From Patescibacteria group bacterium (lineage in GTDB: Bacteria; Patescibacteriota; Minisyncoccia; UBA6257; 2-01-FULL-56-20), in assembly GCA_038063055.1 (NCBI GenBank), contig JBBTVY010000001.1, forward strand, positions 1 through 52,106: a DNA stretch of 52,106 nt, in the 5' to 3' direction. The position numbers and the translations under genes are program-made. Shown piece by piece: positions 1,931 through 41,543 of the stretch (position 1 is the first letter of the stretch; the number at the start of each line of letters is the position of its first letter). The notes below the pieces were generated by a model that was given only the letters and a program-made list of their open reading frames with translations, had not been told where the DNA came from and ran no database searches.

Positions 1931-1936
1931 GATGAA

Positions 1937-11335: not shown

Positions 11336-12206
11336 CCCTGGCCAAAGTCGGATGTATTGCTTTTCTGATTGTTTCTGGAATGAACGCGTAAAGATACTGC
11401 AGATAATTCAGAGCAAGCGCCGCTAAATAATTGGGATATTTTCCCTTATAGCGCCTCATTATCGTAAGCGACGCCTTGAGATGGGGTCTCGCTTTTTTTA
11501 TCGAAGTATTGTCGTTCGCCAGAAGATAATATGAAAAATATTCCGGGAAATTGTACAGCTTTCCAACAAGCCCCATTTTGAGCCAGAAATCGCGGTCTCC
11601 GGAATATCTTGTCGATTCGTCATACCAGCCGACCTTCTCGCCGGCGCTCCTGCGGAACATAGTAGTGCTGTTGGCGAGCGGATTTCCGAAAAGCATTTTT
11701 TTTCTGATGGCTTCGTCGGTTTCCGGCTTGAGATACCTGTAAACTTCTTTGCCGTTGCCATCAACAACAATCATCCCTCCGCCGCAGCCGGCGTAGTCGG
11801 GATTTTTGTCCAAAAAATTTACTTGCTTCGAAAGTTTGTCTGCGTCGCACCACGGGTCGTCGTCATCGAGCATGGCTACGTATTCCCCTTTCGCCAGTCG
11901 CAAGCCTCGGTTGTAGTTTTTAGAAATTCCCTGATTAACATCACTTCTCGTGTAAACGATTCGCGGCTTGCCCTGCCCGTCCCGAGCCGCGTCGAGGGAA
12001 GCTTTGTCGAAGGGTTCTTTCTTAAGCCACTTTGCGACAACTTCCGGCGTGTTATCCGTCGAGCCGTCATCGGCGATTATAAGTTCCCAGTCCTCTTGCG
12101 GTGAGCCGGGTCGAACCGTGAATGTCTGCTTTAGCACGCTCTCTATGGCGGAATCAATTAATCCCGCGCGGTTGTATGTGGCCATCAATATGGATACTTT
12201 TGGCAT
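11313..12206 (-). CDS. GT2 glycosyltransferase carrying three in-frame 24-nt insertions
   Basis: SILMATYNR, DDGSTD, LDDDD. Removing the inserts restores LKQTFKDWELII and WLKKEPRIVY. Confidence 0.92.
   Translation of the reverse strand: MPKVSILMATYNRAGLIDSAIESVLKQTFTVRPGSPQEDWELIIADDGSTDNTPEVVAKWLKKEPFDKASLDAARDGQGKPRIVYTRSDVNQGISKNYNRGLRLAKGEYVAMLDDDDPWCDADKLSKQVNFLDKNPDYAGCGGGMIVVDGNGKEVYRYLKPETDEAIRKKMLFGNPLANSTTMFRRSAGEKVGWYDESTRYSGDRDFWLKMGLVGKLYNFPEYFSYYLLANDNTSIKKARPHLKASLTIMRRYKGKYPNYLAALALNYLQYLYAFIPETIRKAIHPTLARVKRRLAG
11967..12014. mobile_element. Two nested 24-nt palindromic elements inserted in frame
   Basis: Outer CTTGCCCTG|AGCTTTGTCGAAGGG is split by inner CCCGTCCCGAGCCGCGTCGAGGGA (11976-11999). 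Together they add 16 aa. Confidence 0.8.
12095..12118. mobile_element. 24-nt palindromic element inserted in frame
   Basis: CTTGCGGTGAGCCGGGTCGAACCG, same consensus as the nested pair. Adds 8 aa. Confidence 0.8.
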
Positions 12207-12232
12207 GAATAGAGAATAATGAATTATGAATA
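12205..12232. repeat. Heptamer tandem array (ATGAATA-type, 4 units)
   Basis: atgaata gagaata atgaatt atgaata, abutting the GT2 start codon. Confidence 0.6.
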
Positions 12233-12287
12233 ATGTGACAAGGAAATTTCTTTGAGAAAGGCTACACCGCGCGTGCAGCCGCTTTTT

Positions 12288-12812
12288 TTAAATAATTTCC
12301 CTTGCCTCTTCCAAAGATTCTACTATGAAATCGGGGCTGCAATTTTTCAATTCCTCGCCATTATGTTCGTTTTTTAAAAATATTGTTTTGCAGCCGACTG
12401 TTTTTCCGGGCTTGGCGTCTTTGTCGCTATCCCCCAAGAAAAACGATTCTGAAAAATCTATTTCGAAATCTTTTTCCGCTTTTAAAAGCATGCCTGGTTT
12501 CGGTTTTCGGCAATCGCAATTATCTTCGTTTCGGTGCGGACAATAGTAAATTGCGTCCAATTTCATATCAAGCAATTCGTTCATCTTGTTGTTGATTGAA
12601 ATTACTTCTTCTTCGCTAACCATGCCCCTCGAAATCTGGGGTTGATTTGTAACAACAATGACAAAATATCCTTTGTTTTTAGCTTCGTCTATTAATCCTC
12701 TTATGCCAGGAAAAAGCTTGAATTCTTCCCAGCGCGTCAAATACTGGCCGCGCGGCAAGGCTTCGCAAATTACGCCGTCCCTATCGAGAAATAATGCTTT
12801 TTTGTTCTTCAT
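12288..12812 (-). CDS. gmhB: D,D-heptose 1,7-bisphosphate phosphatase (HAD IIIA)
   Basis: LFLDRDGV, VTNQP, CPH..CDCRKPKPGM, GDSDKD. Start taken at MKNKK. Confidence 0.9.
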   Translation of the reverse strand: MKNKKALFLDRDGVICEALPRGQYLTRWEEFKLFPGIRGLIDEAKNKGYFVIVVTNQPQISRGMVSEEEVISINNKMNELLDMKLDAIYYCPHRNEDNCDCRKPKPGMLLKAEKDFEIDFSESFFLGDSDKDAKPGKTVGCKTIFLKNEHNGEELKNCSPDFIVESLEEAREII

Positions 12813-13530
12813 ACCATTTTTGGGCATACTCATATTTTTCCGGAGTTCCTATGTCTAAAATTTTTTCGTCTGTTGGAAATCCGTATACCGCCTCTCCGTT
12901 TTTTACCAATCCGGGGAAAATATCTATATCCAGCCTTGATTTGCCCTCCGGAATGAATTCAATTATTTTTTTTGAAAGTACATAAATACCGGCGTTTAAA
13001 AATGTGTTTTTGGCAAAATTTTTAAAATCGTGCGGCCGTTGATGCCAACCTACTATTTTTAAAGTTTTAAAGTCAATCTCGGCCAAATCTCCGTTTTGCG
13101 GTTCGTCGGAACGTTTCAAAACAACAGTAGCCAAAGCTTTTCTGTTTTTGTGCAGCTCGATTAAAGGCCTGATATCCAAAGAAAAAACCTGGTCGCCATA
13201 TATAAGAACAAAATCTTCCGTCAGCAAATTCTCCGCTTTTTTTATGGCGCCGGCGGTTTCCAGGAGTTTTTTTGATTCATCGCTGTATTCTATGGAAACG
13301 CCAAGTTTTTCTCCATTGCCGAAATAATCGGTAATTTTCTCCGGGAAATAATGGATATTAAAAACGAAGTTTTTAAAACCCTGCGATCTCAAAAGATTTA
13401 TGATGTTTTCTAATAGAGGTTTTCCGCCGATAGGAAGCATTACTTTAGGCAAATTTTTTCCCAAATTTCCCAATCTAGTCCCCAATCCAGCAGTCAAAAT
13501 AAAAACCTTGTAATTTGATAAATCAACCAT
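12781..13530 (-). CDS. hddC: Heptose-1-phosphate guanylyltransferase (nucleotidyltransferase)
   Basis: LTAGLGTRL..PKVM, LETAGA, DIGTPE. Context between gmhA and gmhB. Confidence 0.75.
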   Translation of the reverse strand: MVDLSNYKVFILTAGLGTRLGNLGKNLPKVMLPIGGKPLLENIINLLRSQGFKNFVFNIHYFPEKITDYFGNGEKLGVSIEYSDESKKLLETAGAIKKAENLLTEDFVLIYGDQVFSLDIRPLIELHKNRKALATVVLKRSDEPQNGDLAEIDFKTLKIVGWHQRPHDFKNFAKNTFLNAGIYVLSKKIIEFIPEGKSRLDIDIFPGLVKNGEAVYGFPTDEKILDIGTPEKYEYAQKWYEEQKSIISR

Positions 13531-13534
13531 TACC

Positions 13535-14134
13535 TTACTTCCCTTTTTCCACCAGATGGTCGAAATAGTTCTTGAAATACTTCGTCATCAGGTGCATTAC
13601 CGTGTCGTGGGTGCTCTCGACAATTTCATATTCGCCCTTCGGAGTCGGAACCAGTATTTTCACGTCGGCGAGCTGGTTTAGTTTTCCACCGTCGAATCCG
13701 GAAAGACCGATGACGGGAACTTTGTGTTTTTTTGCGACTTCAACCGCCTTAATAATGTTCGCCGAGTTACCCGAGCTTGAAATTGCTATGACCACGTCGG
13801 AATCTTCCAAAACGTTATCGAGCGGTCCGGCAAAAACCATATCGTAACCGATGTCATTCGCCCAGGCCGTAAGTTCTTCTTCCGTCGCGGGAATGCGGCT
13901 GACCCTGAAACGCTTGCTGTGTTCGCTAAGGTGATGGCTGAAAACGGTTTTATTGAAATCAGTTACCCAATGCCCCGCGATCGCCCATGAACCGCCGTTG
14001 CCGAAAATATAGATGCGGCCGTCGCGCTCGTAAGCGCCCTGCAAAATATTCAACGCCTTGGCAATCTCATCATGAGGCAGATTTTCTATAGCCGTTATCG
14101 ATTTTTGCGAGAATTCGTTTATAAAGTCCCTCAT
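13535..14134 (-). CDS. gmhA: Sedoheptulose-7-phosphate isomerase (SIS)
   Basis: GNGGS, TAWANDIGY, AISSSGNS, VESTH. Confidence 0.9.
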   Translation of the reverse strand: MRDFINEFSQKSITAIENLPHDEIAKALNILQGAYERDGRIYIFGNGGSWAIAGHWVTDFNKTVFSHHLSEHSKRFRVSRIPATEEELTAWANDIGYDMVFAGPLDNVLEDSDVVIAISSSGNSANIIKAVEVAKKHKVPVIGLSGFDGGKLNQLADVKILVPTPKGEYEIVESTHDTVMHLMTKYFKNYFDHLVEKGK

Positions 14135-15159
14135 TATATTGAAACTTTATTTTTGAACTCGTCGCCGTTAAAAAGTATTTCAACGCCGGATTGGACGAAT
14201 TTTACGGGAATTTCCTGAAATTCTGACAGATTTTTGTCTTTTGCGATTTCTTTAACTGCTTCACGGATGGCAGATTTTTTATCTTCAGGAGCAAGAAACA
14301 TTATGCAGCCGCCGCCGCCGGCTCCCAAAACCTTGCCGCCCCAGGCTCCGGCGTTCATTCCCGCGTTGTAAAACTCGTCTATAGTAGAGTTGGAAACATT
14401 GGAGGCCAAACTTTTTTTCTTGAGCCAGCCCTCGTGGAGCATCCCTCCAAGCTCTTCAAAATCTCCTGAAAGAAGCTTTTTTTTGAATTCGTCCACGGAA
14501 CCGGCCATTTCCTTGAGCGTATCGAATTTCTTGTCTATGTTTGCTTTCTGTTCGGTCAAAACGCTTGAAGCCGCTCTGGTCAATCCCATAAAGAAAAGAA
14601 GAAGATTATTTTCGAGACCGAGTCGCTTTTTGTAATCCCAAAGAACCGGCTCGACGTTCACGCTCTCGTCGGGATTGAACTGGATGACGTTCAATCCACC
14701 CAAAGCCGATGCGTACTGGTCCTGCTTGCCAATTGGTTCGCCGATAAGCTCTATTTCGAGACGCGACGCCGCTTCGGCCGCTTCGTGTTTGTCGATTTTT
14801 TTCCCGACAAAAGCATTTAGTCCTTTCATTAAAGCCACCGAGAAACTCGAAGAAGAACCGAGTCCGGTTTTTGCCGGCAAGCTGGCGAAAGAACCTATTT
14901 CTATTCCCTTTCCTATCCCCATGTCCAAAAGCGCCGCCTTTATGCGTGTGTGCTGAAGGTCGTCCGGCTTGTCCACTGTTTCCGAAATGGAATAACGCGC
15001 CGACACCTTCGGAATAAGAGGCGTTCTATTTATGGCGACGTAAACGAATTTGTCTATCGCCGTAGAAATCACGCGACCCGGGTGCCTGCGGTAAAAATCC
15101 GGCAGGTCGGTCCCGCCGCCCAAAAAACTTATGCGAAGTGGTGCGCGAACTACTATCAT
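14134..15159 (-). CDS. hddA: D-glycero-alpha-D-manno-heptose-7-phosphate kinase (GHMP)
   Basis: APLRISFLGGGTD, GLGSSS, GKQDQY, GAGGGG. Confidence 0.9.
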   Translation of the reverse strand: MIVVRAPLRISFLGGGTDLPDFYRRHPGRVISTAIDKFVYVAINRTPLIPKVSARYSISETVDKPDDLQHTRIKAALLDMGIGKGIEIGSFASLPAKTGLGSSSSFSVALMKGLNAFVGKKIDKHEAAEAASRLEIELIGEPIGKQDQYASALGGLNVIQFNPDESVNVEPVLWDYKKRLGLENNLLLFFMGLTRAASSVLTEQKANIDKKFDTLKEMAGSVDEFKKKLLSGDFEELGGMLHEGWLKKKSLASNVSNSTIDEFYNAGMNAGAWGGKVLGAGGGGCIMFLAPEDKKSAIREAVKEIAKDKNLSEFQEIPVKFVQSGVEILFNGDEFKNKVSI

Positions 15160-15168
15160 AGTAAGAAA

Positions 15169-15197
15169 ATACTAAAACAATTTGACGATAGTGTCAA
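15169..15197 (-). promoter_or_regulatory. Sigma70 promoter of the hddA-gmhA-hddC-gmhB operon
   Basis: TTGACA (15197-15192), 17 bp, TAGTAT (15174-15169), about 10 bp before the ATG. The -35 lies within the palindrome TTTGAC..GTCAAA. Confidence 0.6.
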
Positions 15198-15348
15198 AAG
15201 TAGAAATTGGCCGGAATGTTATTTTTTTAACTGCTTTTGGACAATAAATTTTTCTTGTACCACATGAGAAATGTCTTTTAGCCACGCTTCCAATATATGC
15301 CAAATTGCGGTAGGATGCTGCAAAGAAAGATTATCTGGCACCCTCCAA

Positions 15349-16809
15349 ATGTTCGGTAAAATAAAAAGTTTATTCTTGGAAAACAGAACTTTGCGTCAAA
15401 CTGTTTTCAAAAACGCTTTTTGGCTGAGCGTCGGAAATTTCGGGAGTCGTTTCATTCACGCCGCCATTATTATTTACGCCGCCCGCATCCTTGGGGCAAG
15501 TGAATATGGCGTCTTCTCGTACGCTTTAGGCCTAGCTTCTTTCTTTGTCATTTTTTCGGATATCGGCATTTCCCAACTTCTAACTCGAGAAGTTGCAAAA
15601 CATCCGGATAAAGCACGGGCTTATATTTCCACCTCGTTTGCCATTAAAATTTTCTTCCTCGCCAGCGTTATCATTCTAATGCTGCTCATAGCGCCGCACT
15701 TTTCCAAAATACCGGAAGCCAAAACGCTTATTCCTATCATAGCTATGCTTTTGATTTTTGACGGATTGAGAAATTTCGGTTTTGCCATAACACGAGCCCA
15801 AAATCGAATGGAACTTGAGACGCTTTTTACCGTTTTAACCGATATTTCCATCACTACTATTAGTTTTTTTGTGCTCTTTGCAAATCCTTCCGCCGAACGA
15901 CTTGCTTGGGGCTATGCGGCGGGAAGCGGACTAGGGCTAGTGATGCTCGGTTTAGCGCTAAGAAATTGGTTCAAGAATTTAGCGGCTGATTTTGATAAAA
16001 AATTAGTGATTCCGATTATTTCTTCGGCCTGGCCGCTTGCCATTGTCGGTTTATTTAGTATTTTTACGATTGACATCGACACTATCATTATCGGCTGGTT
16101 TCTCAATGCTTCGGATTTGGGACTATACGGCGTCGCTCAGCGGCCGGTACAATTAATCTATGCGCTCCCCGCTCTTCTTGCAACCAGCCTCTTCCCCATT
16201 TTAAGCAAATTAATTCACAGCAAAGAAGTTGAACGAGTGCGCGCAATCAATGAACGTTCCTTTGCTATTTCTTTCGGCCTTGCCATTCCTTTGACGTTCG
16301 GCGGGATTGTTTTGGGAAAACAAATAATCTACGCACTTTTCGGAGCGGAATATCTCGGCGCCGTTCTTACATTCCAGCTTCTTCTATTCACTGTTATTCT
16401 GGTTTCCCCGGAAATACTTTTGGGGAACTTATTCTTTGCCTATGGATTTCGCAAAATATTTATTGTTGCTGCGGCGCTGGGGGCGGTAACAAACGTAGTT
16501 TTTGACTTTTTGTTTATTCCCCGTTACGGCATCGCCGGTTCCGTAGTTGCCACCATCCTCGCTCATATCGCCATCTTATGCTGTTATTGGTTTAAAATGC
16601 GGCAAATTCACAGTTTTAAAATTATTTTCCGCCTCTCGCGAATTATTCCGGCTTCACTTTTGATGATAGTGCTCACTTCCATTCTCAGCCGGTGGGGAAT
16701 TAATGTTTTTTTGAATATCGGCATCTCGGCAACAACATACTTTTTCTTTCTTTATCTTTTTAAAGAACCACTGATTTCGGAAGTGAAAAAAGTTTGGAAA
16801 GCCGCCTAG
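15349..16809 (+). CDS. Wzx-type polysaccharide flippase (paralog of 9827)
   Basis: KNAFWL, ARILGASEYGVFSY, many TMs. Start taken at MFGKIK. Confidence 0.92.
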   Translation: MFGKIKSLFLENRTLRQTVFKNAFWLSVGNFGSRFIHAAIIIYAARILGASEYGVFSYALGLASFFVIFSDIGISQLLTREVAKHPDKARAYISTSFAIKIFFLASVIILMLLIAPHFSKIPEAKTLIPIIAMLLIFDGLRNFGFAITRAQNRMELETLFTVLTDISITTISFFVLFANPSAERLAWGYAAGSGLGLVMLGLALRNWFKNLAADFDKKLVIPIISSAWPLAIVGLFSIFTIDIDTIIIGWFLNASDLGLYGVAQRPVQLIYALPALLATSLFPILSKLIHSKEVERVRAINERSFAISFGLAIPLTFGGIVLGKQIIYALFGAEYLGAVLTFQLLLFTVILVSPEILLGNLFFAYGFRKIFIVAAALGAVTNVVFDFLFIPRYGIAGSVVATILAHIAILCCYWFKMRQIHSFKIIFRLSRIIPASLLMIVLTSILSRWGINVFLNIGISATTYFFFLYLFKEPLISEVKKVWKAA

Positions 16810-16823
16810 CGCCGTTTTCGCCA

Positions 16824-17906
16824 TTACTTTCTCTTTCCGCCAGTCAGAATTTTTTGGAAAATTTCCGAAAACCTTTTCTCCCAAGTGTGGTCGCGAATAG
16901 TCCTCTTGTGCCCCGCTTTCGCAATGCGCCCTCTCTCTTCATCGTGGTCCAAATAATATTTTATCTTTTCCGCCAATTCTTTTTTGGTGTTGAATACCAC
17001 AATTTCTTTGTCGTATTCATAGTAATTGTACAAATCCTCGGCAGCTTGAGTTATTAAAAATCCGCCACAGGCTGGAATCTCAAAATTACGGCCTTTTATT
17101 TGGGGCTTAGCGACGGGAAAATTAAAATTGATTACGTTCCTTAAAATAATTGATGGCGGAAAAAAATGGAAAGTGTTGTTAATCCCGCGGCGCATAAATA
17201 CTTTGGCTATTGTTTTAACAATGGTTTTAATGTCTTTGGCCGACGTGCTTACTTCGGCAAAATTCAAGTTTACTTTGCTGTTCGCAAAAATTTCCACCAT
17301 TTTTTCCTGACTTGCGCGGCCATTGGGCCAACCCTGACCCCAACAATCGACGGGAATGCCCTCCCGGGAAAGAAAATCAGCCATTTCTCGCCGATTGCCG
17401 TGCGGCCGTCCCACAAAGGTAACTCCGTACTTTTCTCCTGGAACTGGGTGATAAATTGCCGGATTGGCAGCCCAAGCGGATTTAATGACGTTGCGATAAC
17501 CGATTTTTCCATATTTTGGCAAGGCTTCTCGGTCAGTAGTAACCACCCAGTCAAAAAACGGCGCCCAATATCTGGAAAAATTTTCAAAACGCCATTGGTC
17601 ATCGGAAAACCAATTGACAGTAATAGTGTTGGTTTGGGTGGTAATGGCTTTAATGGTTTGCGGAGTAATTTCGTTGGTAAATAAATTGCAGAACACAATA
17701 TCCGGTTTTTCTTCTTTAACCATCATGAACAATTTATTGTTCATTTCTTTTTTGCCGACTTGCATCATCATTTCATCCACCGCAAAGTAAATGGCGTTCG
17801 CGCCGTACATTCTTGAAATGGAATCCCAAAAATTGACATGTTCGTAGGAATAACCTCGCCGGACATCGGCGTAATCATATTTAAATGCCGCGTATAGAAT
17901 TTTCAT
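16824..17906 (-). CDS. CgeB-like glycosyltransferase (Glyco_trans_1_2)
   Basis: WFSDDQWRF, KGRNFEIPACGGFL, HTWEKR. Paralog of 34290. Confidence 0.85.
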   Translation of the reverse strand: MKILYAAFKYDYADVRRGYSYEHVNFWDSISRMYGANAIYFAVDEMMMQVGKKEMNNKLFMMVKEEKPDIVFCNLFTNEITPQTIKAITTQTNTITVNWFSDDQWRFENFSRYWAPFFDWVVTTDREALPKYGKIGYRNVIKSAWAANPAIYHPVPGEKYGVTFVGRPHGNRREMADFLSREGIPVDCWGQGWPNGRASQEKMVEIFANSKVNLNFAEVSTSAKDIKTIVKTIAKVFMRRGINNTFHFFPPSIILRNVINFNFPVAKPQIKGRNFEIPACGGFLITQAAEDLYNYYEYDKEIVVFNTKKELAEKIKYYLDHDEERGRIAKAGHKRTIRDHTWEKRFSEIFQKILTGGKRK

Positions 17907-17918
17907 CTATTCTTTGTC

Positions 17919-18908
17919 TTATTGATTAAACACACTGAATACCTCAAAATACTTTTCTGAAACGCGGGGCCAATTAAGGTTGCTGAGACATTTTTCTCTG
18001 GCGTTTCTGGACATTTCCGAACGCAAAATATTGTCCGACATCAGCTTATGAATCAAAGTAATGAATTTTTTGAGTTCGCCGCTTTGGGGTTTTACCAAAA
18101 ATCCCTCTTTTCCGTCGCTAATCAACTCGCTATTGCCGCAACTATCCGATAAAACACATGGCAGGCCGGAAGCCATTGCTTCCACAATTACTGCCGCGCA
18201 GGGTTCATCTATGCTGGGAAAGAGAAATATATCAGAAGAGGCCATAATTTTGGAAACTTCTTCATGACTTGCAAATGGCATCCAATAAAAGTTTTTCAAA
18301 TCTTTGGCAGACGAGATAAAATCTTGCTTATCTTTTCGTCCCACTAGAACAAAACTGGCCTCGGGAACATTTTCGGCCAGTTTTATGAATACGTCCGGTC
18401 TTTTTCTTTTAAACATAGCCCCGACGAAAAGAATAACCGGCCTATTCAAGGGTAAGCCGAAGGTTGTACCCAGAAAATTCCTATCTCTCTTATGGGGATT
18501 AAAAAACTCTGTATCGACTCCATTCAATATCTTGAAAATCGGCTTCGACGGAAAATGTTTTTTTACCGATTGGGCAACGCAGTCAGAAACCGCGATAACA
18601 AACGCGGCACGCCGGAATAATATCTTTCTAACCGGCCAAGTTTTGCCTACCCTCAAAACCGTGTGCCAAGCAATGACATATCTTGTTCGCGCAGGCTTAA
18701 ACGGCAGGTACAATATCTCCTCCAAGACACCTATCCCCAGCATGTAATCCGGCTTAACCTTGCGCAAAACCAGAACTTTCTGCCAAAAAGTTTTGAGCTC
18801 CATAAAATCCACACGGCCGGACAAGCAGCGGAAAATATTATGATTAACGGTATCTATGGCATCAATTGGCTTGCCGAGCGGCGTTTTTAAAGACAAAATA
18901 CTGATCAT
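17919..18908 (-). CDS. GT4 glycosyltransferase
   Basis: NGVD, DIFLFPS..EP..VEAMASGLP. Start taken at MISILS, giving an ATGA overlap. Confidence 0.88.
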   Translation of the reverse strand: MISILSLKTPLGKPIDAIDTVNHNIFRCLSGRVDFMELKTFWQKVLVLRKVKPDYMLGIGVLEEILYLPFKPARTRYVIAWHTVLRVGKTWPVRKILFRRAAFVIAVSDCVAQSVKKHFPSKPIFKILNGVDTEFFNPHKRDRNFLGTTFGLPLNRPVILFVGAMFKRKRPDVFIKLAENVPEASFVLVGRKDKQDFISSAKDLKNFYWMPFASHEEVSKIMASSDIFLFPSIDEPCAAVIVEAMASGLPCVLSDSCGNSELISDGKEGFLVKPQSGELKKFITLIHKLMSDNILRSEMSRNAREKCLSNLNWPRVSEKYFEVFSVFNQ

Positions 18909-20781: not shown

Positions 20782-20787
20782 GGCTTT

Positions 20788-22387: not shown

Positions 22388-22388
22388 A

Positions 22389-23297: not shown

Positions 23298-23504
23298 TTC
23301 TTGTAAAGACGCCTAAGCTTATCATAATATTCAGCCCCGATAATCTTTTTTAAGGATGTTCTTAAATTTGTTTTTAAGCTCCCTTTTTGCGTGTGAAATG
23401 CAACATTTGGAGGAATGAAACCGATTTCTTTGGAATCTATATTCAGGTCTTTGAGCCACGCAGCGAAACAACTTCCCGGCACAGAACGATATTGTGAGTT
23501 TGAA
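23288..23504 (-). pseudogene. Probable C-terminal remnant of a lost gene
   Basis: The open frame ends ...SLKKIIGAEYYDKLRRLYKKWL, and its stop overlaps the GT11 start as in an operon. No credible N-terminus; it abuts the LamG gene stop. Confidence 0.45.
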
Positions 23505-25016: not shown

Positions 25017-25119
25017 AACCGAACATTAACACGGTCTTCGTGATCGGGCAATTGAAACTGTAGAAAACCTCGCCCGAAATCACGGATGTCATATTTCCAT
25101 TGTATTCCTACAAGAATGA

Positions 25120-28040: not shown

Positions 28041-28043
28041 AAT

Positions 28044-28973: not shown

Positions 28974-28983
28974 AATTACAATC

Positions 28984-29709: not shown

Positions 29710-29871
29710 GTTTCCTATTCTAACTCAATCTGCATTCTCTCACCAACAGGCATTATCATAATCATGATAAATTGCTGTCTTTCTACTATTAGGTAAATAT
29801 TTCTTGTAATGTCGGCCATCCTACTTTTTATAGTCTGGCGTTAGTATATAATGTTGTGTATCGTAATCTAT

Positions 29872-31850: not shown

Positions 31851-31856
31851 TACGGC

Positions 31857-32918: not shown

Positions 32919-32919
32919 A

Positions 32920-33879: not shown

Positions 33880-33882
33880 GTT

Positions 33883-33924
33883 GTGTACAGACTACAGCTT
33901 ACTGACTACAGCTGACAGTCGTAG
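33883..33924. repeat. Heptamer array, left flank of the four-helix-bundle gene
   Basis: gtgtaca gactaca gcttact gactaca gctgaca gtcgtag. Confidence 0.8.
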
Positions 33925-34278
33925 CTAGAGAAGCTTTTTTATTAACGAGTTAATTTTCGATGCCAATATATTAGCCGACTTATAAAGATAATCAAATTCC
34001 TCCTGATTAATAAAGTTTTGGTCAATTGTGATATACAATGCCGTTACGACTTCCTCCAACGAGGTTATACTTATCCGCAGGAATCTAACGAATTCCTTAT
34101 CCGATTTTCTATCAGCACCTTCAGCTATATTCAAAGTCACTGAAACAGCAGCTCGACGAATTTGCGAAGTTAGTCCGAATTGTTCTTCTTTCGGAAACTT
34201 GCTGGACAAAATATAAATCTCACTGGTAAATTTTCTGGCGAGTTTCCATGTTTCTAAATTTTCAAACCTGAAATACAT
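33925..34278 (-). CDS. Four helix bundle protein (23S rRNA IVP / Avd-like family)
   Basis: FENLETW, FPKEEQFGLTSQIRRAAVSVTLNIAEG, SLEEV. Confidence 0.93.
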   Translation of the reverse strand: MYFRFENLETWKLARKFTSEIYILSSKFPKEEQFGLTSQIRRAAVSVTLNIAEGADRKSDKEFVRFLRISITSLEEVVTALYITIDQNFINQEEFDYLYKSANILASKINSLIKKLL

Positions 34279-34313
34279 GTTAGCAGTAGTCAGTAGTCTG
34301 TAAGCCGTAGTCC
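34279..34313. repeat. Heptamer array, right flank of the four-helix-bundle gene (inverted relative to the left)
   Basis: gttagca gtagtca gtagtct gtaagcc gtagtcc. GTAGTC is the reverse complement of GACTAC. It encodes the last residues and stop of the upstream GT. Confidence 0.8.
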
Positions 34314-35453
34314 AATCCTTTCAAATATCTCTCTGAACCTTTTTTCATAAGTGTGGTCTTTTATGGTCCGTTCGTAGCCGGCAAGCGCGATTTTTTTACG
34401 TTCGTCTTCATTGGCTAGATAATATTTCACCATTTCTGGAATTTCCTTTTCATCGCGGTAAACCGCTATTTCTTTCCCGATTTCGTAATAACGTTCCAAT
34501 CCCTTGGCATATCCAGCCAGAAGAAAGCCGCCACAAGCCGGTATCTCGAATACACGACCCTTTATTTGTGAAATTTTCCGGCCGACGAACCACGAACGGA
34601 AATTCCTCGGGAAGCGCCAGAAATCAGGAACTATTTTTTCGACACTCCTCCTGAAAAAAATTTTGCCTAACGATTTGAGCGAATAATCCATATTCGGCTG
34701 GTTGAGTCCAAGATTTATTTTGCTCTGCCCGAAAAGTTTTATCATTTCCTCTTCGGAAATTCTTCCTCCGCCCCCGCCTGCTAGCGCCTTTGGCGCAAGC
34801 CAATGGCGGGCAGGCCAGCCGGCTCCGAACACGGAAACGCTGATTCCTGACTTTCTTAGCGCATCGACGACTCTCTGTCGCGCCTTGTTCCACGAACCGA
34901 CCAAGCTTACATCGGCTGACGGACTACTGACTACTGCTGACTGCTTACTGCTTGCTGTAGTCTGCCCATCTGTAGTCTGTAGTCCGTAAGCCGTCGGCTT
35001 GTATAATGCCGTATTCGCCGCCCAGCAGGATTTTATGACGTTTTTTAGTCCGAGTTTCCGGTACCACTCGAGTGGCTCGTCATAAACCGTTACGACCCAG
35101 TCGAAATACGGCGTCCAATGGTGGGAATAGCTCCAGAATCTCCAGGTATCGTCCGGAAACCAGGCCAGTGTTTTCGTCTGCGTCTCGCGCCTTATTTTCG
35201 AAAGCGTTTCTTTGCTTACTTCATCGGTCAGCATAAACACGAAAAGCAAATCCGGCTGCCATGATTTTACGGCTTCAAAAAGTTCTTCATTGAATTTCTT
35301 TTTGCCAACTTCGAGAATCCTGTCGAATGGAAAATATTTAATTTCAACGCCCGGCAAATCTTTCAAGCTCAAATAAAAATTATTATGCTCGAAACTTAGC
35401 CCGTAGCTTTTCTTGTAAAAAGAATATTGTATTCCGGTATAAAGTATTTTCAT
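34290..35453 (-). CDS. CgeB-like glycosyltransferase with two in-frame repeat insertions
   Basis: WFPDDTWRF, KGRVFEIPACGGFL, HTYEKR. Has 14-aa and about 21-aa extra segments relative to paralog 16824. Confidence 0.85.
   Translation of the reverse strand: MKILYTGIQYSFYKKSYGLSFEHNNFYLSLKDLPGVEIKYFPFDRILEVGKKKFNEELFEAVKSWQPDLLFVFMLTDEVSKETLSKIRRETQTKTLAWFPDDTWRFWSYSHHWTPYFDWVVTVYDEPLEWYRKLGLKNVIKSCWAANTALYKPTAYGLQTTDGQTTASSKQSAVVSSPSADVSLVGSWNKARQRVVDALRKSGISVSVFGAGWPARHWLAPKALAGGGGGRISEEEMIKLFGQSKINLGLNQPNMDYSLKSLGKIFFRRSVEKIVPDFWRFPRNFRSWFVGRKISQIKGRVFEIPACGGFLLAGYAKGLERYYEIGKEIAVYRDEKEIPEMVKYYLANEDERKKIALAGYERTIKDHTYEKRFREIFERIGLRLTDY
34773..34814. mobile_element. 42-bp palindromic in-frame insertion
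   Basis: CCCGCC..GCGCC-TTT-GGCGC..GGCGGG-CAGG, encoding PARHWLAPKALAGG. Confidence 0.7.
34915..34999. repeat. Head-to-head heptamer arrays inside a coding region
   Basis: gctgacg gactact gactact gctgact gcttact gcttgct, then gtagtct gcccatct gtagtct gtagtcc gtaagcc gtcggct. Confidence 0.8.
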
Positions 35454-35455
35454 GA

Positions 35456-36655
35456 TTACTTGTTTCCTAAAGCTATTTCTATAAACCCTCTGGCGTAAGC
35501 ATCCCAGCTTACGTTTTCCTTGACGAATCTTTGCCCGTTTGACGTTATCTTCCCATAAAAACTGCTATCTTTCATCAAAATTTCCACTTTTTCTGCAAGT
35601 TGATTTGGATTTAAGGGTTCAAAGAAGAGGGCGTTTTCGCCGTCTTTGAGAACTTCGGCGTCGCTTGAACCGCTGCAAACGACAAGCGGCAAGCCGGCGC
35701 TCATGGCTTCAAACGGCGCTATTCCCCAAATCTTAATGTGTGTCGCATATATATAAACATCGCTTTGCCGGTAAACATCCATAAAATCTTTCTCGGCAAC
35801 ACCCTCAAACCTGGCGTCTATATAATTTTTGATGCCGGAATTTTCTATAAAGCTTTCGAATTCCTCGCGGTAAATTTTGTCCGCCCAAAAATCCTGACAG
35901 ACAAGCAATGTGCGCGCGTCATATCCTTTTTTCCGCAAAATTGCAGTAGCGCTGATGACATCTTCGAATCTTCTGTAGCGCCCAAGAGAGCCGACGCTTA
36001 AAAGGGCGATTTTTTTGGAGTCCGGCTTGCTTTTTACGGGCCTGTAAAAAGATTCGAAATCAACCCCGCCCCTTAAAATTCTGGTATTCAATCCCAATTC
36101 TTTTTCCGCAATCTCTTTATTTCTGTTGTCAATCACAACAGCGATATCCGCTTTTTTGAAAAATCTCCTTTCTATTTTTTCCTGAACAGCGTAAAAAATT
36201 TTGCTTGAAATATTTCTGATAAACCCCTTTTTGGGATTAAAATCGAACGGCGAATCGTGCATTGTCCAAATAAATTTTGCTTTTGGATTCCTCTTTTTAT
36301 ACAGCGCTCCCACTCTGTAGGAAAAATCCGTATGACAATTGACGATATCAAAGTCGTTTTCCATCGCATCGGCTATTCTCCTGGCGTTCAGCGCCGCCAA
36401 TTTGTATAGCCTCAAGCTTCCCAATATCTTTCCGAATGTGGTCTTTGAGCCGAATACTGAAGAAAAGGGAATGTCGCCTTTGATTTCCCTGATATCAAGG
36501 CCCCTGGAAAGAACAGGGAAACAATTCGGATTATAATCCGCGGTGAATATTACAACCGCATTGCCCTGCTTTTTGAGCGATTGGGCGAAAGAAAACAAAA
36601 GCCGGGAAGCGCCAGCTTCGGTCGCAAGATTAAATAATACGATAGCTATTTTCAT
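35456..36655 (-). CDS. GT4 glycosyltransferase
   Basis: GGVD, WGIAPFEAMSAGLP, GT-B layout. Confidence 0.88.
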   Translation of the reverse strand: MKIAIVLFNLATEAGASRLLFSFAQSLKKQGNAVVIFTADYNPNCFPVLSRGLDIREIKGDIPFSSVFGSKTTFGKILGSLRLYKLAALNARRIADAMENDFDIVNCHTDFSYRVGALYKKRNPKAKFIWTMHDSPFDFNPKKGFIRNISSKIFYAVQEKIERRFFKKADIAVVIDNRNKEIAEKELGLNTRILRGGVDFESFYRPVKSKPDSKKIALLSVGSLGRYRRFEDVISATAILRKKGYDARTLLVCQDFWADKIYREEFESFIENSGIKNYIDARFEGVAEKDFMDVYRQSDVYIYATHIKIWGIAPFEAMSAGLPLVVCSGSSDAEVLKDGENALFFEPLNPNQLAEKVEILMKDSSFYGKITSNGQRFVKENVSWDAYARGFIEIALGNK

Positions 36656-36774
36656 TTAAGAGCGCACATTGGCCTCCTCGGCTAATGCGCCTTAGTATAG
36701 CTTGCCGGGCGGAAAAAAGTGAAGGATTTCAATCGGGTAAATTATTTGCGGCCCGGCTTAAACTCAAAATACAA

Positions 36775-37530
36775 TTAATTTTTGTATATGCCTATATAAA
36801 TGCCGTTGGATGCGGGGAACGGATAACCGTAGCGCGAATCCTTCACCTCCTCATATTTTGCTTCGCGCCATTCGTTGTCCTTGGATAAGCGCTTCATAAA
36901 ATACACAGGAATGCCCAATTTATCCTCGGCTACTAACTTATCCAAATTGGGGTTATAGCCCATCGGCATAGACATATATAATATTCCGCCCGGCGCAAGA
37001 AGTTTCTTTTGCACTTCAACCGCTCTTGGGATTTTAGTGGGGTCCTTTTCTTCCGGAAAGTCATATCCTATGTGTTCCATCGTTCCCATGCTGACAATTC
37101 TTTTATAGAGCTTATTTGGGGCGAATCCGATTATATCTTCATTCCTCACGCCAGGGCCCATTTCATATTTGTCGACTATATCATGACCTATGGGATAATA
37201 CTGCCTGAGAACATTTCCTATTTCGAGCACGCTACTTGGGTCAACGTCTTTTACCAAATCAATGACGATGGGTACCTCGGCGGACCGTTCATTGCGCCAT
37301 GTAAAATTTTTCTTGCTGTAGAGATAATTATATTTCTTTCCCTGGAATGTGAATGAAGGAATCCGCCGCGCGCGGAAATTGCTGTGAATGTGATGCATAA
37401 GTGTCCAATAGGGACGTTGGAAAAAATAAAGTTTTATTTTGTAAAAAACAGTTGATAAGAACCCTTTGACTCCTTTTCTGTTATAGGCGTTCCTTATTCT
37501 TTGATAAAAATTTGTGGTTGTTTTAGCCAT
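36775..37530 (-). CDS. Hypothetical protein, SAM-methyltransferase-like
   Basis: NERSAEVP, VLEIGNV, SMGTMEHIG, LAPGG. Confidence 0.6.
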   Translation of the reverse strand: MAKTTTNFYQRIRNAYNRKGVKGFLSTVFYKIKLYFFQRPYWTLMHHIHSNFRARRIPSFTFQGKKYNYLYSKKNFTWRNERSAEVPIVIDLVKDVDPSSVLEIGNVLRQYYPIGHDIVDKYEMGPGVRNEDIIGFAPNKLYKRIVSMGTMEHIGYDFPEEKDPTKIPRAVEVQKKLLAPGGILYMSMPMGYNPNLDKLVAEDKLGIPVYFMKRLSKDNEWREAKYEEVKDSRYGYPFPASNGIYIGIYKN

Positions 37531-37534
37531 TTGG

Positions 37535-38599
37535 CTATTTTAACACACCATTAACAAAATTTTCAAACTTTCCTGCCGTAGGACTCTTTTTTAGAAAAGC
37601 AGAAATTGCCGTCCGGAATTTGCTTATTTCTTCTGGCCCGAGGTTCCTCAAAAAGGCATTCAGCTCCGAATACCCTCCGAATTTCCTGAAATCTATGAAA
37701 CAATCTTTCGGAACGAGCTTATCTATGTCCGGCGCTCCGTAATAAACCGGAATGGTGCCTGCCGCCATGCAATCAAATATCTTTTCGCTTACCCATCCCG
37801 ACGTAATGTCATTCTCGAAAGCCAGTCCGAATTTGTATTCGCTCATTGTTTTGAGCTTGTCCGGAACTTTGCCGCGCCAGACACGCTTCACGTATTTGTC
37901 GTAATGGAAATAAAAGGGATGCTTTGGCGGCTTGTCCCAACCGAAACCGTAAAAATCAAAACCTTCCACGCCACTGAAAAACTTTATGGCTTTGAGACGC
38001 TCTCCGTAAAGTTCATTGGTAAATTTGTGCGGACGGATATTGGAATTTATCATTGTAAGATATTTGTTTTTCGGAACGCTGAAATACGGGCTAGTGATAT
38101 CCTTGGTGCGATGTTCAAAATAATTGAAATATTCCCATTTGGGATGGTTTACGCGAGCTATGACGAATATTCTGTGATAAAAACCTGATTTTGCTATTGC
38201 ATCCAAATGCGAATACACGAAAGGCATGGACACTGGTGGCTCTACCTGCAAAAGAACTCTGCGTCCAAAAAAAGAAAAATTTTTCATAAAAAAACGCCTG
38301 CGCTTCATGAAAAAACCGCCCCTGTCTTTGAAATGAACGATTGAATAATAAATCCTCCAGAAAAGCGTTTCGCCCGGATGATTCATTGCCAAAAGTATGT
38401 CGTCCGACTTGGCCAATTCTCTGCTCCACTGAAAATATGACTTTACGGAAACGCCGCGTTTGGCGCACTCTTCATAAAAAGAGTTCCAAAAAAGAGCGTT
38501 CGGGCTTCCGCCGTCATATGGCCTAAAAGAGATTCCTTCCCCTTCAAAATATTCGTTTGGAAACATATCCGGGCCAGCCGGCATTATATATACAGTCAT
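37535..38599 (-). CDS. GT10 alpha-1,3/4-fucosyltransferase-family protein
   Basis: YKFGLAFEN..GWVSEKIFDCMAAGTIPVYYG GT10 motif. Confidence 0.88.
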   Translation of the reverse strand: MTVYIMPAGPDMFPNEYFEGEGISFRPYDGGSPNALFWNSFYEECAKRGVSVKSYFQWSRELAKSDDILLAMNHPGETLFWRIYYSIVHFKDRGGFFMKRRRFFMKNFSFFGRRVLLQVEPPVSMPFVYSHLDAIAKSGFYHRIFVIARVNHPKWEYFNYFEHRTKDITSPYFSVPKNKYLTMINSNIRPHKFTNELYGERLKAIKFFSGVEGFDFYGFGWDKPPKHPFYFHYDKYVKRVWRGKVPDKLKTMSEYKFGLAFENDITSGWVSEKIFDCMAAGTIPVYYGAPDIDKLVPKDCFIDFRKFGGYSELNAFLRNLGPEEISKFRTAISAFLKKSPTAGKFENFVNGVLK

Positions 38600-38620
38600 A
38601 AGGGATAGTATACAGTCCGA

Positions 38621-39976
38621 TTACTCATTTTTGAATTCCTTCAGCCGTTTTTCGAGACGCGCCGCGAGTTCCTTTTTTTCACCGTAAAGATTATTTTTTT
38701 CTTCCGGGTCATCCAGGGGAAAAAGAAGTTTCTGCGAATCGCTTATCAACTTGTGCTTTTCGGCCACTAGGCATCTGCCTATCAGCTTTATTCCGGAAAG
38801 GTCGGCTTCGTGGTCGGATATTTCGGCAATGACGTCCCTTTCTTTTCCGTCAAAAAGGTTGCCTCCCCTGAAAGATTGCGGACGCCTCGCTCCGGCGAAG
38901 CAGAGAATTGTCGGCGCAATATCCATAGAACTTCTCGGAATTTCTTCCGTTCTCGGTTTGCCGATTAATTTTTCCGGTCCGACGGCAATCAGCGGAACTT
39001 TTATGTTTTCATTGAAAAATTTTTGCATATGCTGAAATCCCCCATGGTCGTTAAATTCCTCGCCATGGTCGGCCGTTATGAAAACAACCGATTCTTCGTT
39101 CAAAACCCCTTTTGAGGAAAGATATCCGAATAAATCTTTGAGCGCTTCGTCTATGTGCCTGATTCCGTCGTCGTAAAGTCCGAGATAAAGCGGCAAAAAT
39201 AAACGGCTGACGCGCGGATATTCGCTCCAGAAATCAAAAAGATAATCGGCAAAATAAGATTTAATTTTTGATAAAAAACCGCGTCCGCGGCGCAGAAAAA
39301 GCCCGTAAGGCGCGTGGGCGTCCATGTAGTGGACCCACAAAAAAATGGGGTCTTTTATTTCGCCGTCCTGTTCCGCCAATTCCGACAACTCTTTCTTCAC
39401 CGCATTGTTCATTTCAAAAGCGGTGAAATATGCCTGAATCGGACGTCTCAAATCAACAAAGATTCTTCTTACTGTAGAAGCTATCCTTTCAAAAAAAAGG
39501 AAAATTTGTTCCAAGAATCTTGCGTACCTTGCAAGTACCCGGCGGATAATGCCTATCCTTTTTATAAGGCGCGATTGCCACGTGCCGCTCTTCATTCCCG
39601 GGCTGACGGCTGTAGAAAAATAATTAAGATGGCTGAATTTGTCCCAGCCGCGCCCATAGCCGAAATACTCCGAAAGATAGGCGTTTGAATGGAATCCCAT
39701 AGTTATGTATCCCGCGCCCTGCAGCGCCTCCTGGAGCAGAGTTCTTTGTTCGGTGATGCGCGTATAGCCGCCGAAATCCAGAGGGTAGGTGGAAGCCATT
39801 ATCCCTGCAAAACTCTGCGGAGTTGCGGCGCCGACCGAAAAACTATTCTTGAAAACAACTCCCCTTTTCGCGATTGAATCAATAAACGGGCTGGTGTTTT
39901 TTTTATAGCCGTAAACACCGAGATGGTCGGCGCGCAAAGCATCCAAAGTTATTAATATGATATTCGGCTTCTTCAT
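38621..39976 (-). CDS. Sulfatase-like alkaline-phosphatase-superfamily protein with Thr at the nucleophile position
   Basis: KPNIILITLDALRADH, ATPQSF in place of CxPSR, WVHYMDAHAPY, TADHGEEF. No signal peptide. Confidence 0.85.
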   Translation of the reverse strand: MKKPNIILITLDALRADHLGVYGYKKNTSPFIDSIAKRGVVFKNSFSVGAATPQSFAGIMASTYPLDFGGYTRITEQRTLLQEALQGAGYITMGFHSNAYLSEYFGYGRGWDKFSHLNYFSTAVSPGMKSGTWQSRLIKRIGIIRRVLARYARFLEQIFLFFERIASTVRRIFVDLRRPIQAYFTAFEMNNAVKKELSELAEQDGEIKDPIFLWVHYMDAHAPYGLFLRRGRGFLSKIKSYFADYLFDFWSEYPRVSRLFLPLYLGLYDDGIRHIDEALKDLFGYLSSKGVLNEESVVFITADHGEEFNDHGGFQHMQKFFNENIKVPLIAVGPEKLIGKPRTEEIPRSSMDIAPTILCFAGARRPQSFRGGNLFDGKERDVIAEISDHEADLSGIKLIGRCLVAEKHKLISDSQKLLFPLDDPEEKNNLYGEKKELAARLEKRLKEFKNE

Positions 39977-41217
39977 TAAATATTTTTTATCCTGCCTACG
40001 CCTATTATCTCTCCTCCCTGCTTGATTACAAATTTATTCAGGAATGTTTCTTCGGTATCCAAAAGAAGCAGAGCCGAAAGATTAAGTTTCAATCCGATTA
40101 TTTTGTTTGTCTCCACGGGGATGCTTCCTTGGTGTTCGGCTTTTGAAGAACCGCATTCAATTGTTATTTTCTCCGCAGGATTGAAATTTCTGAAAAGAAA
40201 AATTTCACTGTCTGCTTCCTTAATGGAACGCGGGGCATTTTTCTCGGGAGCAAGAATTGTCCCGCGCGATATTTCCGAACCGGCCTTAAGCGCGATCCCG
40301 GCGTTCTCGCCCTCCTTTACGGATTCCGTGTCATTGCCGGAAACGGAAAGCAAATTCAATACTGAAAATATTTTCCCTGACGGCAAAGCTACAACCGATT
40401 CTCCTTTTTTAAGCTCCCCGCTTTTGACGTTTATGGCCGCCAAAGATTCTCCGTTTCTCGGATAAATCCCGTTAGAAGCAGGGTGCCCCGAGGTGCCCGT
40501 AGCACTCTCCTGCTGTAGAGGGCGGCTTCTAACGGGATAAACATCCTGAACGATGGCGCGCATCGGAAGCGGGACGGATTTCATTTTTGCTATCGTGTCT
40601 TCAACTCTTTCAAAAATACTCATTCCTTTGAACCAGGGCATCTTCTCGGAAACTTTCGCGACATTCTCCCCTTCGCGGGCGGAAAGCGGAATGTAATAAA
40701 CGTCCTCCGGCTTGAACTTTCCCGCGAGAATTGTTTCCATTTTTTCCTTTATCTTCAGAAACTCGGACTCGTTGTAATCGAACGCGTCCATTTTATTGAC
40801 GCCGACTATCAGCTTTTTCATTCCCAAAAATTCGGCGAGCATAAGATGTCCGATGCTCATTTCGTCTATGCCTTCTTTCGCTGAAACCATAAGAATGGCC
40901 ATATCGGCCCTGGAAGCTCCGGATATCATCTGGTGCACCAATTCCGAATGCCCCGGCACGTCTATGAATATGTATAGAGCGCCTTTCTTTCCATTAACGA
41001 AAACAGATGCGGTATCGTAAGTCATTTCCTGCTCGCGCTCTTCTTTGAAGCTGTCTAAAAGATGCGCCCACTCAAAGGGCCTGCCCGCCTCGGCGTCTAT
41101 TTCTTTTGTGGTCTCCACTTTGTCGCGCGGGACCGAATTGGTGTCAAAAAGAAGCTTGCCGAGAAACGTGGATTTGCCGTGGTCTTTATGCCCGAGAACT
41201 ACGATTGATGGAGTCAT
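39976..41217 (-). CDS. cysN: Sulfate adenylyltransferase subunit 1 (GTPase), no APS kinase domain, with a 25-aa in-frame insertion
   Basis: GHKDHGKST, LLDSFKEEREQ, DVPGH, NKMD. Lies downstream of cysD. Confidence 0.88.
   Translation of the reverse strand: MTPSIVVLGHKDHGKSTFLGKLLFDTNSVPRDKVETTKEIDAEAGRPFEWAHLLDSFKEEREQEMTYDTASVFVNGKKGALYIFIDVPGHSELVHQMISGASRADMAILMVSAKEGIDEMSIGHLMLAEFLGMKKLIVGVNKMDAFDYNESEFLKIKEKMETILAGKFKPEDVYYIPLSAREGENVAKVSEKMPWFKGMSIFERVEDTIAKMKSVPLPMRAIVQDVYPVRSRPLQQESATGTSGHPASNGIYPRNGESLAAINVKSGELKKGESVVALPSGKIFSVLNLLSVSGNDTESVKEGENAGIALKAGSEISRGTILAPEKNAPRSIKEADSEIFLFRNFNPAEKITIECGSSKAEHQGSIPVETNKIIGLKLNLSALLLLDTEETFLNKFVIKQGGEIIGVGRIKNI
40467..40536. mobile_element. 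MITE-like element, CCCGTTAGAA/TTCTAACGGG family, copy 3 (in frame in cysN)
   Basis: 14-bp IR (40466-40479 and 40525-40538). ATAAA direct repeats at 40462 and 40537 are 75 bp apart; removal restores QDVYPRNG. Confidence 0.82.
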
Positions 41218-41219
41218 GC

Positions 41220-41280
41220 CAATTTCGCCTGCGAGGGCAAGGTTGTTATTTTAACCGCAGCCCGAGCAGCTGCGAAATTG
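41220..41280. repeat. 61-bp imperfect hairpin between the cysN start and the GIY-YIG cassette
   Basis: CAATTTCGC/GCGAAATTG, CTGC/GCAG, GGGC/GCCC, GGTT/AACC. Confidence 0.65.
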
Positions 41281-41283
41281 AGC

Positions 41284-41543
41284 ACCGAGCACATAAATTT
41301 ATTCCAAACTGAATTCCAGTCGTTCCTTAAGGCGACGAACTGCTTGGCCTCTCTGCTTAAGCATTCTTTCGCGATTTCTTGCATCACGTTCATTTTTGTA
41401 TGCTTCATAATAAATTAGATTTGGTTTTTTATCTTTGTGTTCCTTAAAACGCCTTTTGAGATCATTGGTATAGCCGATATAGGTCGTTCCGTTATCTTCG
41501 CGCTTTAGGACATAGACGTAATACATAAATTTATGTGCTCGGT
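41284..41543. mobile_element. GIY-YIG cassette bounded by perfect 19-bp terminal inverted repeats
   Basis: ACCGAGCACATAAATTTAT (41284-41302) and ATAAATTTATGTGCTCGGT (41525-41543). Confidence 0.75.
41299..41526 (-). CDS. Minimal GIY-YIG nuclease family protein (75 aa)
   Basis: YYVYVL..YIGYT.DLKRR..EH, YYEAY, ARNRERMLK. Confidence 0.92.
   Translation of the reverse strand: MYYVYVLKREDNGTTYIGYTNDLKRRFKEHKDKKPNLIYYEAYKNERDARNRERMLKQRGQAVRRLKERLEFSLE

Follow-up and report, generated by a model that had tools for sequence, protein, structure and literature searches.

In-frame inserts in three genes of a glycan locus

The stretch of DNA studied here (hereafter the window, 52,106 nt) is contig C1 of the genome of a Patescibacteria group bacterium (G000; 688 kb in 22 contigs, 90% complete). 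Between 9 and 41 kb it carries a minus-strand run of sugar-nucleotide, glycosyltransferase, sulfatase and cysD/cysN-like genes, and three genes of this run contain short extra segments inserted in frame: a CysN-like GTPase gene (39976..41217), a CgeB-like glycosyltransferase gene (34290..35453, PF13524) and a GT2 glycosyltransferase gene (11313..12206). The initial annotation of the window had counted six such events from four sequence families, and had assigned them to a single class of mobile DNA, driven by a small GIY-YIG nuclease gene and a four-helix-bundle gene of the same locus, that would diversify surface-glycan genes. We report here that the inserts are tiny selfish DNAs of several kinds unrelated to one another rather than one class, and that one of these kinds, named family A, has a longer counterpart encoding a GIY-YIG nuclease.

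Inserts were called by aligning paralogs and close homologs, and the comparison set consisted of 151 sampled genomes of the order (G000 and 150 others). Syntenic relative loci were L002, whose CysN is 88% identical to that of the window, and L003. The query used found no CysN orthologs in the 150 other genomes of the order, so that homologs of this protein were drawn from a large protein set and one contig scan. Close homologs of the proteins studied carry database names of Candidatus Liptonbacteria / Patescibacteria. Five in-frame insertion sites were confirmed by the paralog and close-homolog alignments, one in the CysN-like gene, two in the CgeB-like gene and two in the GT2 gene. The count of six is reached only when a composite GT2 insert is taken twice, and no third GT2 event was found; the tandem units of this 48-nt insert may have been counted separately, which would explain the claim. 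Since proteins identical to the insert-bearing ones are present on several independent contigs in a protein collection, the inserts are not assembly accidents. No match, rRNA included, was obtained in an Rfam search of the window. A repeat search confined to the window returned no long families, and families emerged only at the scale of the genome.

A miniature inverted-repeat element inside the CysN-like gene

The CysN-like GTPase has 413 aa, against 388-389 aa in its five closest homologs, and a block of 25 aa is missing in 7/7 aligned homologs (48-93% identity). The corresponding DNA is a 71-nt element (40467..40537, minus strand) with terminal inverted repeats (TIRs) TCCCGTTAGAAGC/GCTTCTAACGGGA, translated as PVRS...SNG. 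It is bordered by two copies of a target-site duplication (40463..40466 and 40538..40541, TAAA on the plus strand), while L002 has an empty site (...GATGTTTATCCGAG...) with a single, unduplicated TTTA on the coding strand, the two loci forming a filled/empty pair with an exact 4-bp duplication. Element and duplication together make 75 nt, open in the PVR...SNG frame, and the element folds as a hairpin (z -5.1). A reciprocal case is found at the epimerase/GT2 junction, where L002 has a 120-nt copy of the same family and the window has none. With its TIRs, its 4-bp duplication, an empty site in a relative and a longer element with the same TIRs, to which it aligns, the CysN insert is a miniature inverted-repeat transposable element (MITE), and its family is the one named family A.

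In the whole of G000, TIRs TCCCGTTAGA / TCTAACGGGA are present at both ends of 13 family-A loci. At 11 of these, the start codon (10 ATG, 1 GTG) of an open reading frame (ORF) of at least 111 aa is rebuilt, from the last base of the element and the duplicated TGAA. Of the other two loci, one lies upstream of a 37-aa ORF only, and one is internal, in CysN; most copies other than the CysN one are flanked by TGAA/TTCA. Two start-codon copies belong to the window, both on the plus strand: one at the start codon of the epimerase gene (6950..7068; ATGAA on its left, TGAA on its right; hairpin z -6.3), and one at that of ORF 2039-2743 (1937..2039; hairpin z -4.5). Family-A hairpins are strong (z -4.5 to -6.3, with 0/200 shuffles as good). 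Exact-TIR pairs of MITE size were found in 44 of the 151 genomes, with a maximum of 23 per genome, and the reversed-pattern control gave 0.

Copies at start codons could be host regulatory modules, for instance hairpins ensuring stop/start translational coupling, whose mobility would be ancient. The strength of the stems, the rebuilding of a start codon at 11/13 loci and the constancy of the 10-nt TIR across the order, with variable interiors, are all in line with such a role. Presence or absence of the element nevertheless varies between close relatives, one copy sits inside CysN, and 15 genomes contain intact nuclease-coding copies, so that we regard the regulatory reading as improbable.

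Full-length family A encodes a GIY-YIG nuclease

A search for the same TIRs spaced by 270-330 nt matched 16 of the 151 genomes. The sixteenth (G137; 320 nt, containing N) was excluded from the full-length counts. In the remaining 15 genomes, the elements are 275-280 nt long (~277 nt), and 15/15 encode a GIY-YIG protein and nothing else. This protein is about 92-94 aa long, consists of a single GIY-YIG domain (Pfam E 3e-14), and has, over the 15 elements, 58-100% identity to the protein of G146, a congener.

The nuclease ORF lacks an ATG of its own. In the six elements translated, its reading begins at the start codon of the host, the host ATG AA being continued by T CCC GTT AGA of the element to give M-N-P-V-R. 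It ends as ...S-L-T-G in the right TIR, and its stop is the TGA of the duplicated TGAA, which overlaps the host ATG rebuilt from the last A of the element. Flanks of the full-length elements fit this arrangement in most cases, with ATGAA on the left in 10/15 and TGAA on the right in 13/15; some other full-length elements apparently have an ATG within the element itself, in a different frame.

MITEs of G000 align to the full-length element as internal-deletion derivatives, and the one at C8:18308-18435 keeps about 36 N-terminal nuclease codons. Internal deletions of the full-length element would generate the MITEs of 65-125 nt. The palindrome GAAGCGCTTC occurs twice within the nuclease ORF, about 160 nt apart (e.g. 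L012:1501-1777), and MITEs look like deletions between these two sites that leave a sub-terminal hairpin.

MITE-sized copies were found in 13 of the 15 genomes with a full-length element (mean 7.7) and in 31 of the 136 without (mean 1.0). The Fisher odds ratio is 22 (p 2e-6), values that are overstated because the genomes are related and not independent.

The parent element does not encode a recognised transposase, its ORF being that of the GIY-YIG nuclease only. Transposases were searched for in four families, DDE_Tnp_1, rve, Y1 and TnpB. None of the first three was found in G000, G146 and G080, and no TnpB was found in these three genomes or in G026 and G131. Family A could still be moved by a conventional transposase encoded elsewhere, on an unassembled insertion sequence (IS), phage or plasmid, the GIY-YIG protein being a passenger or an addiction module. 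TIRs with a 4-bp duplication are indeed what DDE transposition classically leaves, the assemblies are both incomplete and fragmented, and Y1 and DDE matches are present in G041 and G012. Yet all 15 full-length elements carry the nuclease ORF alone, MITE-sized copies are associated with them as described above, and G146 (18 MITE-sized pairs, 2 full-length) and G080 (19 pairs) are devoid of matches to the four families. We consider a conventional transposase decidedly improbable.

We infer that the GIY-YIG nuclease itself drives mobility. Family A would then be a new autonomous prokaryotic transposable element, whose sole protein is a nuclease of about 92 residues, which targets ATGAA, borrows the start codon of the host and returns a rebuilt one, and whose MITEs occasionally become translated loops (CysN, GT2). 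This proposal is a tentative one, to which we give slightly less than an even chance. In the interpretation that we favour as likely, the autonomous element of ~277 nt normally sits at ATGAA start codons, with the nuclease read from the host ATG, and the CysN copy is an off-target landing at TTTA.

Several points weigh against this interpretation. No full-length copy was found in the 90% complete assembly of G000, nor do six genomes holding 8 or more MITE-sized copies have one. Duplications are imperfect at several of the start-codon copies, and the relatedness of the genomes affects the association given above. The data are incomplete metagenome assemblies, where repeated transposase genes may be unassembled, and the search was limited to four families. 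To our knowledge, no GIY-YIG enzyme is known to transpose, and GIY-YIG homing does not produce a target duplication. The counts of GIY-YIG genes, four-helix-bundle (IVP) genes and family A correlate across genomes (rho 0.41-0.47), but this is unspecific, all three being intercorrelated, so that the association partly reflects a general load of selfish DNA. Finally, for two other kinds of insert described below, the heptamer hairpin and the GT2 units, there is no junction evidence of transposition.

Should the GIY-YIG protein truly move these elements, a nuclease family would be added to the short list of bacterial transposition enzymes, and family A, with its ~277 nt, would be among the smallest autonomous elements known. 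It would also explain a leader hairpin that is widespread upstream of genes in ultra-small bacteria, as well as many odd segments of PVR...SNG and ...SLTG type in their predicted proteins.

Family A compared with known elements

Bacterial MITEs such as Correia/NEMIS and ERIC are described as having TIRs, a target duplication and a hairpin, as being co-transcribed with the genes next to them, and as forming occasional in-frame fusions (PMC10969869). Family A shares the TIRs, the target duplication, the hairpin and the occasional in-frame fusion with these elements as they are presented there, and differs from them in that the protein encoded by its parent is a GIY-YIG nuclease and no DDE transposase, and that its target is the start codon.

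The Ssn/SRM system, in the account of Chenal et al. 2025 (PMC11893778), associates a single-domain GIY-YIG gene with inverted or hairpin repeat flanks and many dispersed gene-less copies, and its authors themselves remark on the IS-like architecture. The single-domain GIY-YIG proteins of 75 aa and 94 aa found here are similar in this respect (Ssn has ~100 aa). The degenerate SRM motif is not enriched in G000, with 1 match against 0-6 in 10 Markov controls, and no match lies within 500 nt of any of the eight small GIY-YIG genes that G000 has. The closest solved relatives are UPF0213 BH0048 (E 6e-9) and Slx1 (PDB), not a named Ssn. Target duplications, start-codon hijacking and an ATG-less ORF are features of family A that do not appear in the parts of the Ssn account considered here (PMC11893778). 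No description of a GIY-YIG element that has TIRs, duplicates its target or settles at start codons was found in the literature searched; the supplementary material of the Ssn paper, which lay outside the search, may bear on it. Unlike in homing endonucleases of I-TevI and Seg type, where a separate DNA-binding domain accompanies the GIY-YIG domain, the catalytic domain alone fits in 75-94 aa, and TIGR01453 stays at 20 bits, below its cut-off of 56.

The GIY-YIG cassette of the window is a sister element

The 75-aa GIY-YIG gene with terminal inverted repeats (IRs) noticed in the initial annotation is confirmed. Its ORF (41299-41526; Pfam E 1e-11) lies in a minus-strand cassette, element E (41284..41543), with perfect 19-nt IRs. 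These IRs differ in sequence from the TIRs of family A. As the best match of G000 to the family-A nuclease, with 44% identity, the window GIY-YIG gene represents a sister element and not the parent. The proposal that it acts in trans as parent of the inserts was therefore rejected, on the ground of its different IRs and of the lack of full-length family A in G000.

Element E has its own dispersed copies: a paralog with the same IRs on C9, a 106-nt gene-less pair on C4 and two solo ends on C16. Conservation extends past the IRs over the whole cysD-cysN spacer up to the cysN ATG, and in 3/3 copies a host ATG follows immediately upon the end of the element (...AAATTGGC and then ATG), which is here that of cysN. 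Element E is absent from L002.

The cysD-cysN spacer (window 41218-41597; L002 9826-10001; L003 9519-10001) has three different occupants in the three relatives, namely the GIY-YIG cassette in the window, a 174-nt GC-rich palindromic stretch in L002, and a decayed heptamer-armed IVP cassette in L003. In addition, the cysD ortholog of L002 (L002:8753-9826) contains a complete 95-aa GIY-YIG domain in frame and without a stop (insert at about 9358-9644). This insert has GC-rich inverted-repeat flanks, and its Pfam GIY-YIG match is nested at residues 209-274 of PAPS_reduct.

Among the eight small GIY-YIG genes of G000, five adjoin tRNA genes (C5:45257-45565, C4:30487-30822, C9:35405-35950, C2:36556-36846), and no IRs were found around the six genes other than the IR-bracketed ones. 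Some of the tRNA-adjoining genes come with duplicated tRNA fragments, a habit that differs from that of the IR-bracketed GIY-YIG elements.

A heptamer hairpin and an IVP cassette at the CgeB-like gene

The first insert of the CgeB-like gene (34913..34993, minus strand) is a gene-less hairpin of GACTACA-type heptamers (z -5.0), which adds about 20 residues to a linker that is of variable length in the homologs. The second (34773..34814, minus strand) is a 42-nt GC-rich orphan coding for 14 aa, with a weak hairpin (z -1.5); it is missing in 9/9 aligned sequences, no other copy was found in the genome, and its junctions show no TIR or target duplication.

Next to this gene lies a cassette bracketed by inverted repeats of heptamers (33886..34309, minus strand), with a four-helix-bundle gene at 33925-34278. 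This gene with its repeat flanks had been noticed in the initial annotation, and is confirmed by matches to PF05635 and TIGR02436 (E 9e-36 and 1.8e-34). The cassette is absent from both L002 and L003, and its two arms pair with each other when it is folded in full (z -3.4). The left arm of CgeB insert 1 is identical to the cassette arm, non-repeat prefix CGGCTTAC included. More generally, each of the 4 PF05635 (IVP) genes of G000 has inverted arrays of ~7-nt units on its two sides, the unit differing from gene to gene. L003 independently has its own IVP cassette and a solo hairpin with look-alike arms. In total, 50 heptamer arrays were counted in G000, about 22 of them within ORFs.

A published rRNA counterpart exists for the anatomy of this cassette, since the S23p intervening sequence (IVS) of Coxiella, as described in PMC4990558, has the same kind of four-helix-bundle ORF, tandem heptamers and a terminal stem, and is excised from 23S rRNA by RNase III. 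The cassette of the window has the PF05635 ORF, adjoining tandem heptamers and terminal inverted repeats forming a stem. Unlike the IVS of that description, it lies between GT2 and CgeB-like genes and not in 23S rRNA, and a gene-less version of it is found within coding sequence. By analogy, the heptamer arms probably form an RNA stem. CgeB insert 1 would be derived from the inverted heptamer arms of this neighbouring 23S-IVS-type cassette, copied without the gene.

An Avd-like role had also been suggested for the four-helix-bundle gene. No reverse transcriptase (RVT_1) match was found in G000, and Avd models stayed below their cut-offs, which leaves a role in Avd-type or diversity-generating retroelement (DGR) systems unsupported.

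At 34290-34309 of the window, the CgeB-like gene takes its final codons and its stop from the arm of the IVP cassette, so that insertion replaced the original C-terminal end. An IVP gene fused to another protein was seen in L025 (G134:C14), where ORF 2..2560 (minus strand), an open frame of more than 850 aa, runs from a PF05635 ORF through a repeat arm, without a stop, into a pilin-like/beta-propeller-like protein. Several other IVP matches are in open frames of 260-715 aa.

GC-rich mini-repeats in the GT2 gene

The GT2 glycosyltransferase has 297 aa, against mostly 273-275 aa in its orthologs. Insert 1 (12095..12118, minus strand; 8 aa) is a 24-nt GC-rich unit of GGTTCGACCCGGCTCACC type, missing in 17/17 aligned orthologs. 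Insert 2 (11964..12011, minus strand; 16 aa) has 48 nt and consists of two tandem TCGAC..GCTC units; it is missing in 15/17 orthologs, the other two carrying other inserts at the site. Both inserts share a TCGAC-N-GCTC core, for which G000 has 71 matches, against 14-26 in ten second-order Markov simulations. The core lies in many unrelated ORFs and in several frames, giving stereotyped peptides. Three G000 loci, on three contigs, have the 22-nt core of insert 2 without any difference, to which one near-copy is added, and this core is present in only 2 of the 150 other genomes, which suggests a recent spread within the lineage. The GT2 inserts would represent GC-rich TCGAC..GCTC mini-repeats spread within G000.

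Outside the GT2 gene, the base-identical 22-nt core is in frame in two unrelated ORFs (C5:49081-49102 and C4:40227-40248), one of which may, from its sequence, be MnmA. The GT2 unit GGTTCGAC..GCTCACCA has a loose resemblance only to a tRNA 3'-end fragment. Small dispersed repeats of Nostocaceae, of ~20-30 nt, are also said to lack an obvious transposase; they reportedly differ from the present units in sequence and phylum.

Neither TIR nor target duplication was found at the junctions of the GT2 units, and insert 2 does not fold (z +1.1). A link of the TCGAC..GCTC units to GIY-YIG or IVP genes was looked for and rejected, as a GIY-YIG gene lies within 1 kb for 4/71 (these four sharing a single locus) and an IVP gene for 0. 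With this lack of spatial association, of TIRs and of duplications, the GT2 inserts and CgeB insert 2 are tied to neither of the two candidate genes.

Rather than by transposition, the heptamer hairpin and the GC-rich inserts could have arisen in place, by slippage, gene conversion or templated repair from nearby copies. This would account for the junctions without target duplication of the GT2 inserts and CgeB insert 2, for the position of CgeB insert 1 about 600 nt from look-alike arms, for the other short inserts present in the same CgeB linker of orthologs, and for the scattering of 50 heptamer arrays with differing units. It accounts poorly for an identical 22-mer in three unrelated genes on three contigs, and for the non-repeat prefix shared by the hairpin arms and the cassette. 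An origin in place of these inserts seems to us rather unlikely.

Several kinds of inserts, without preference for glycan genes

Of the four sequence families initially proposed, three are genuinely dispersed in the genome (family A, the heptamer hairpin, the TCGAC..GCTC mini-repeat), while CgeB insert 2 is single-copy. The idea of nuclease cassettes accompanied by their non-autonomous ends holds for one or two of them, family A and partly the heptamer hairpin, and not for the GT2 inserts or CgeB insert 2.

The glycan locus makes up ~4.7% of genome bases, and contains 2/71 core matches, 3/50 heptamer arrays and 1/13 family-A loci. Measured against this share of bases, and not against gene classes, none of the three families is in excess, and the glycan locus is not a special insertion target. 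This removes the idea of a targeted diversification of surface-glycan genes.

A single class, driven by the window's own GIY-YIG and four-helix genes and adaptively diversifying surface-glycan enzymes, had been suggested by the gathering of six events and both candidate genes within ~30 kb of glycan and sulfation genes. The 44% identity between the window GIY-YIG protein and the family-A nuclease, the closest found in G000, and the repeated independent inserts in the GT2 ortholog family also speak for it. Against this stand the different IRs of the window GIY-YIG cassette, the distance of the mini-repeats from GIY-YIG and IVP genes, the absence of enrichment of the three families in the locus, the presence of the same units in many non-glycan ORFs, and, for the Avd role, the lack of a reverse transcriptase in G000. 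A single adaptive class is thus very improbable. What stands of the initial annotation is largely the inserts themselves and, in spirit, the relation between cassettes and non-autonomous ends, which applies to family A and partly to the heptamer hairpin; the parent gene, the single class and the glycan diversification do not.

Frame preservation and tolerant loops

All inserts preserve the reading frame, as had been stated, and this is expected for intact genes. Among the family-A pairs listed, the sum of element length and duplication is divisible by 3 in only some, so that frame preservation reflects selection on survivors. It looks like survivorship, or purifying selection, and not design. 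Judging from the alignments, tolerant loops appear to collect such selfish DNA. We consider it likely that, as a whole, the inserts are the survivors of several unrelated tiny selfish DNAs that landed, or grew, in frame in such loops. For annotation, this means that short GC-rich or palindromic segments inside enzymes of the Candidate Phyla Radiation (CPR) would be relics of selfish DNA and not functional motifs.

Rickettsia palindromic elements (RPE) offer a precedent, as they are reported to be in-frame, translated palindromes in unrelated metabolic genes, with no evident transposase (PMC10969869, citing Ogata et al. 2000, 2002). The hairpins of CysN and of CgeB insert 1 are likewise in-frame palindromes in unrelated genes. 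Differences from the Rickettsia elements, as summarized in that source, are that GT2 insert 2 is not palindromic; that family A has TIRs, a 4-bp duplication, a preference for start codons and a nuclease-coding parent; and that phylum and sequences are others, the ten RPE families being compared by description only.

Some GT2 orthologs have in-frame inserts of their own in other loops. In other lineages, one surface loop of GT2 carries at least four other kinds of in-frame inserts, of IASS...PRND, PARLASESVAGR and SPVR...SNGV types and one more (orthologs P0263, P0287, P0246, P0251, P0283 and P0344). The ortholog insert that begins with SPVR and ends with SNGV has, in this beginning and end, what the TIRs of family A encode.

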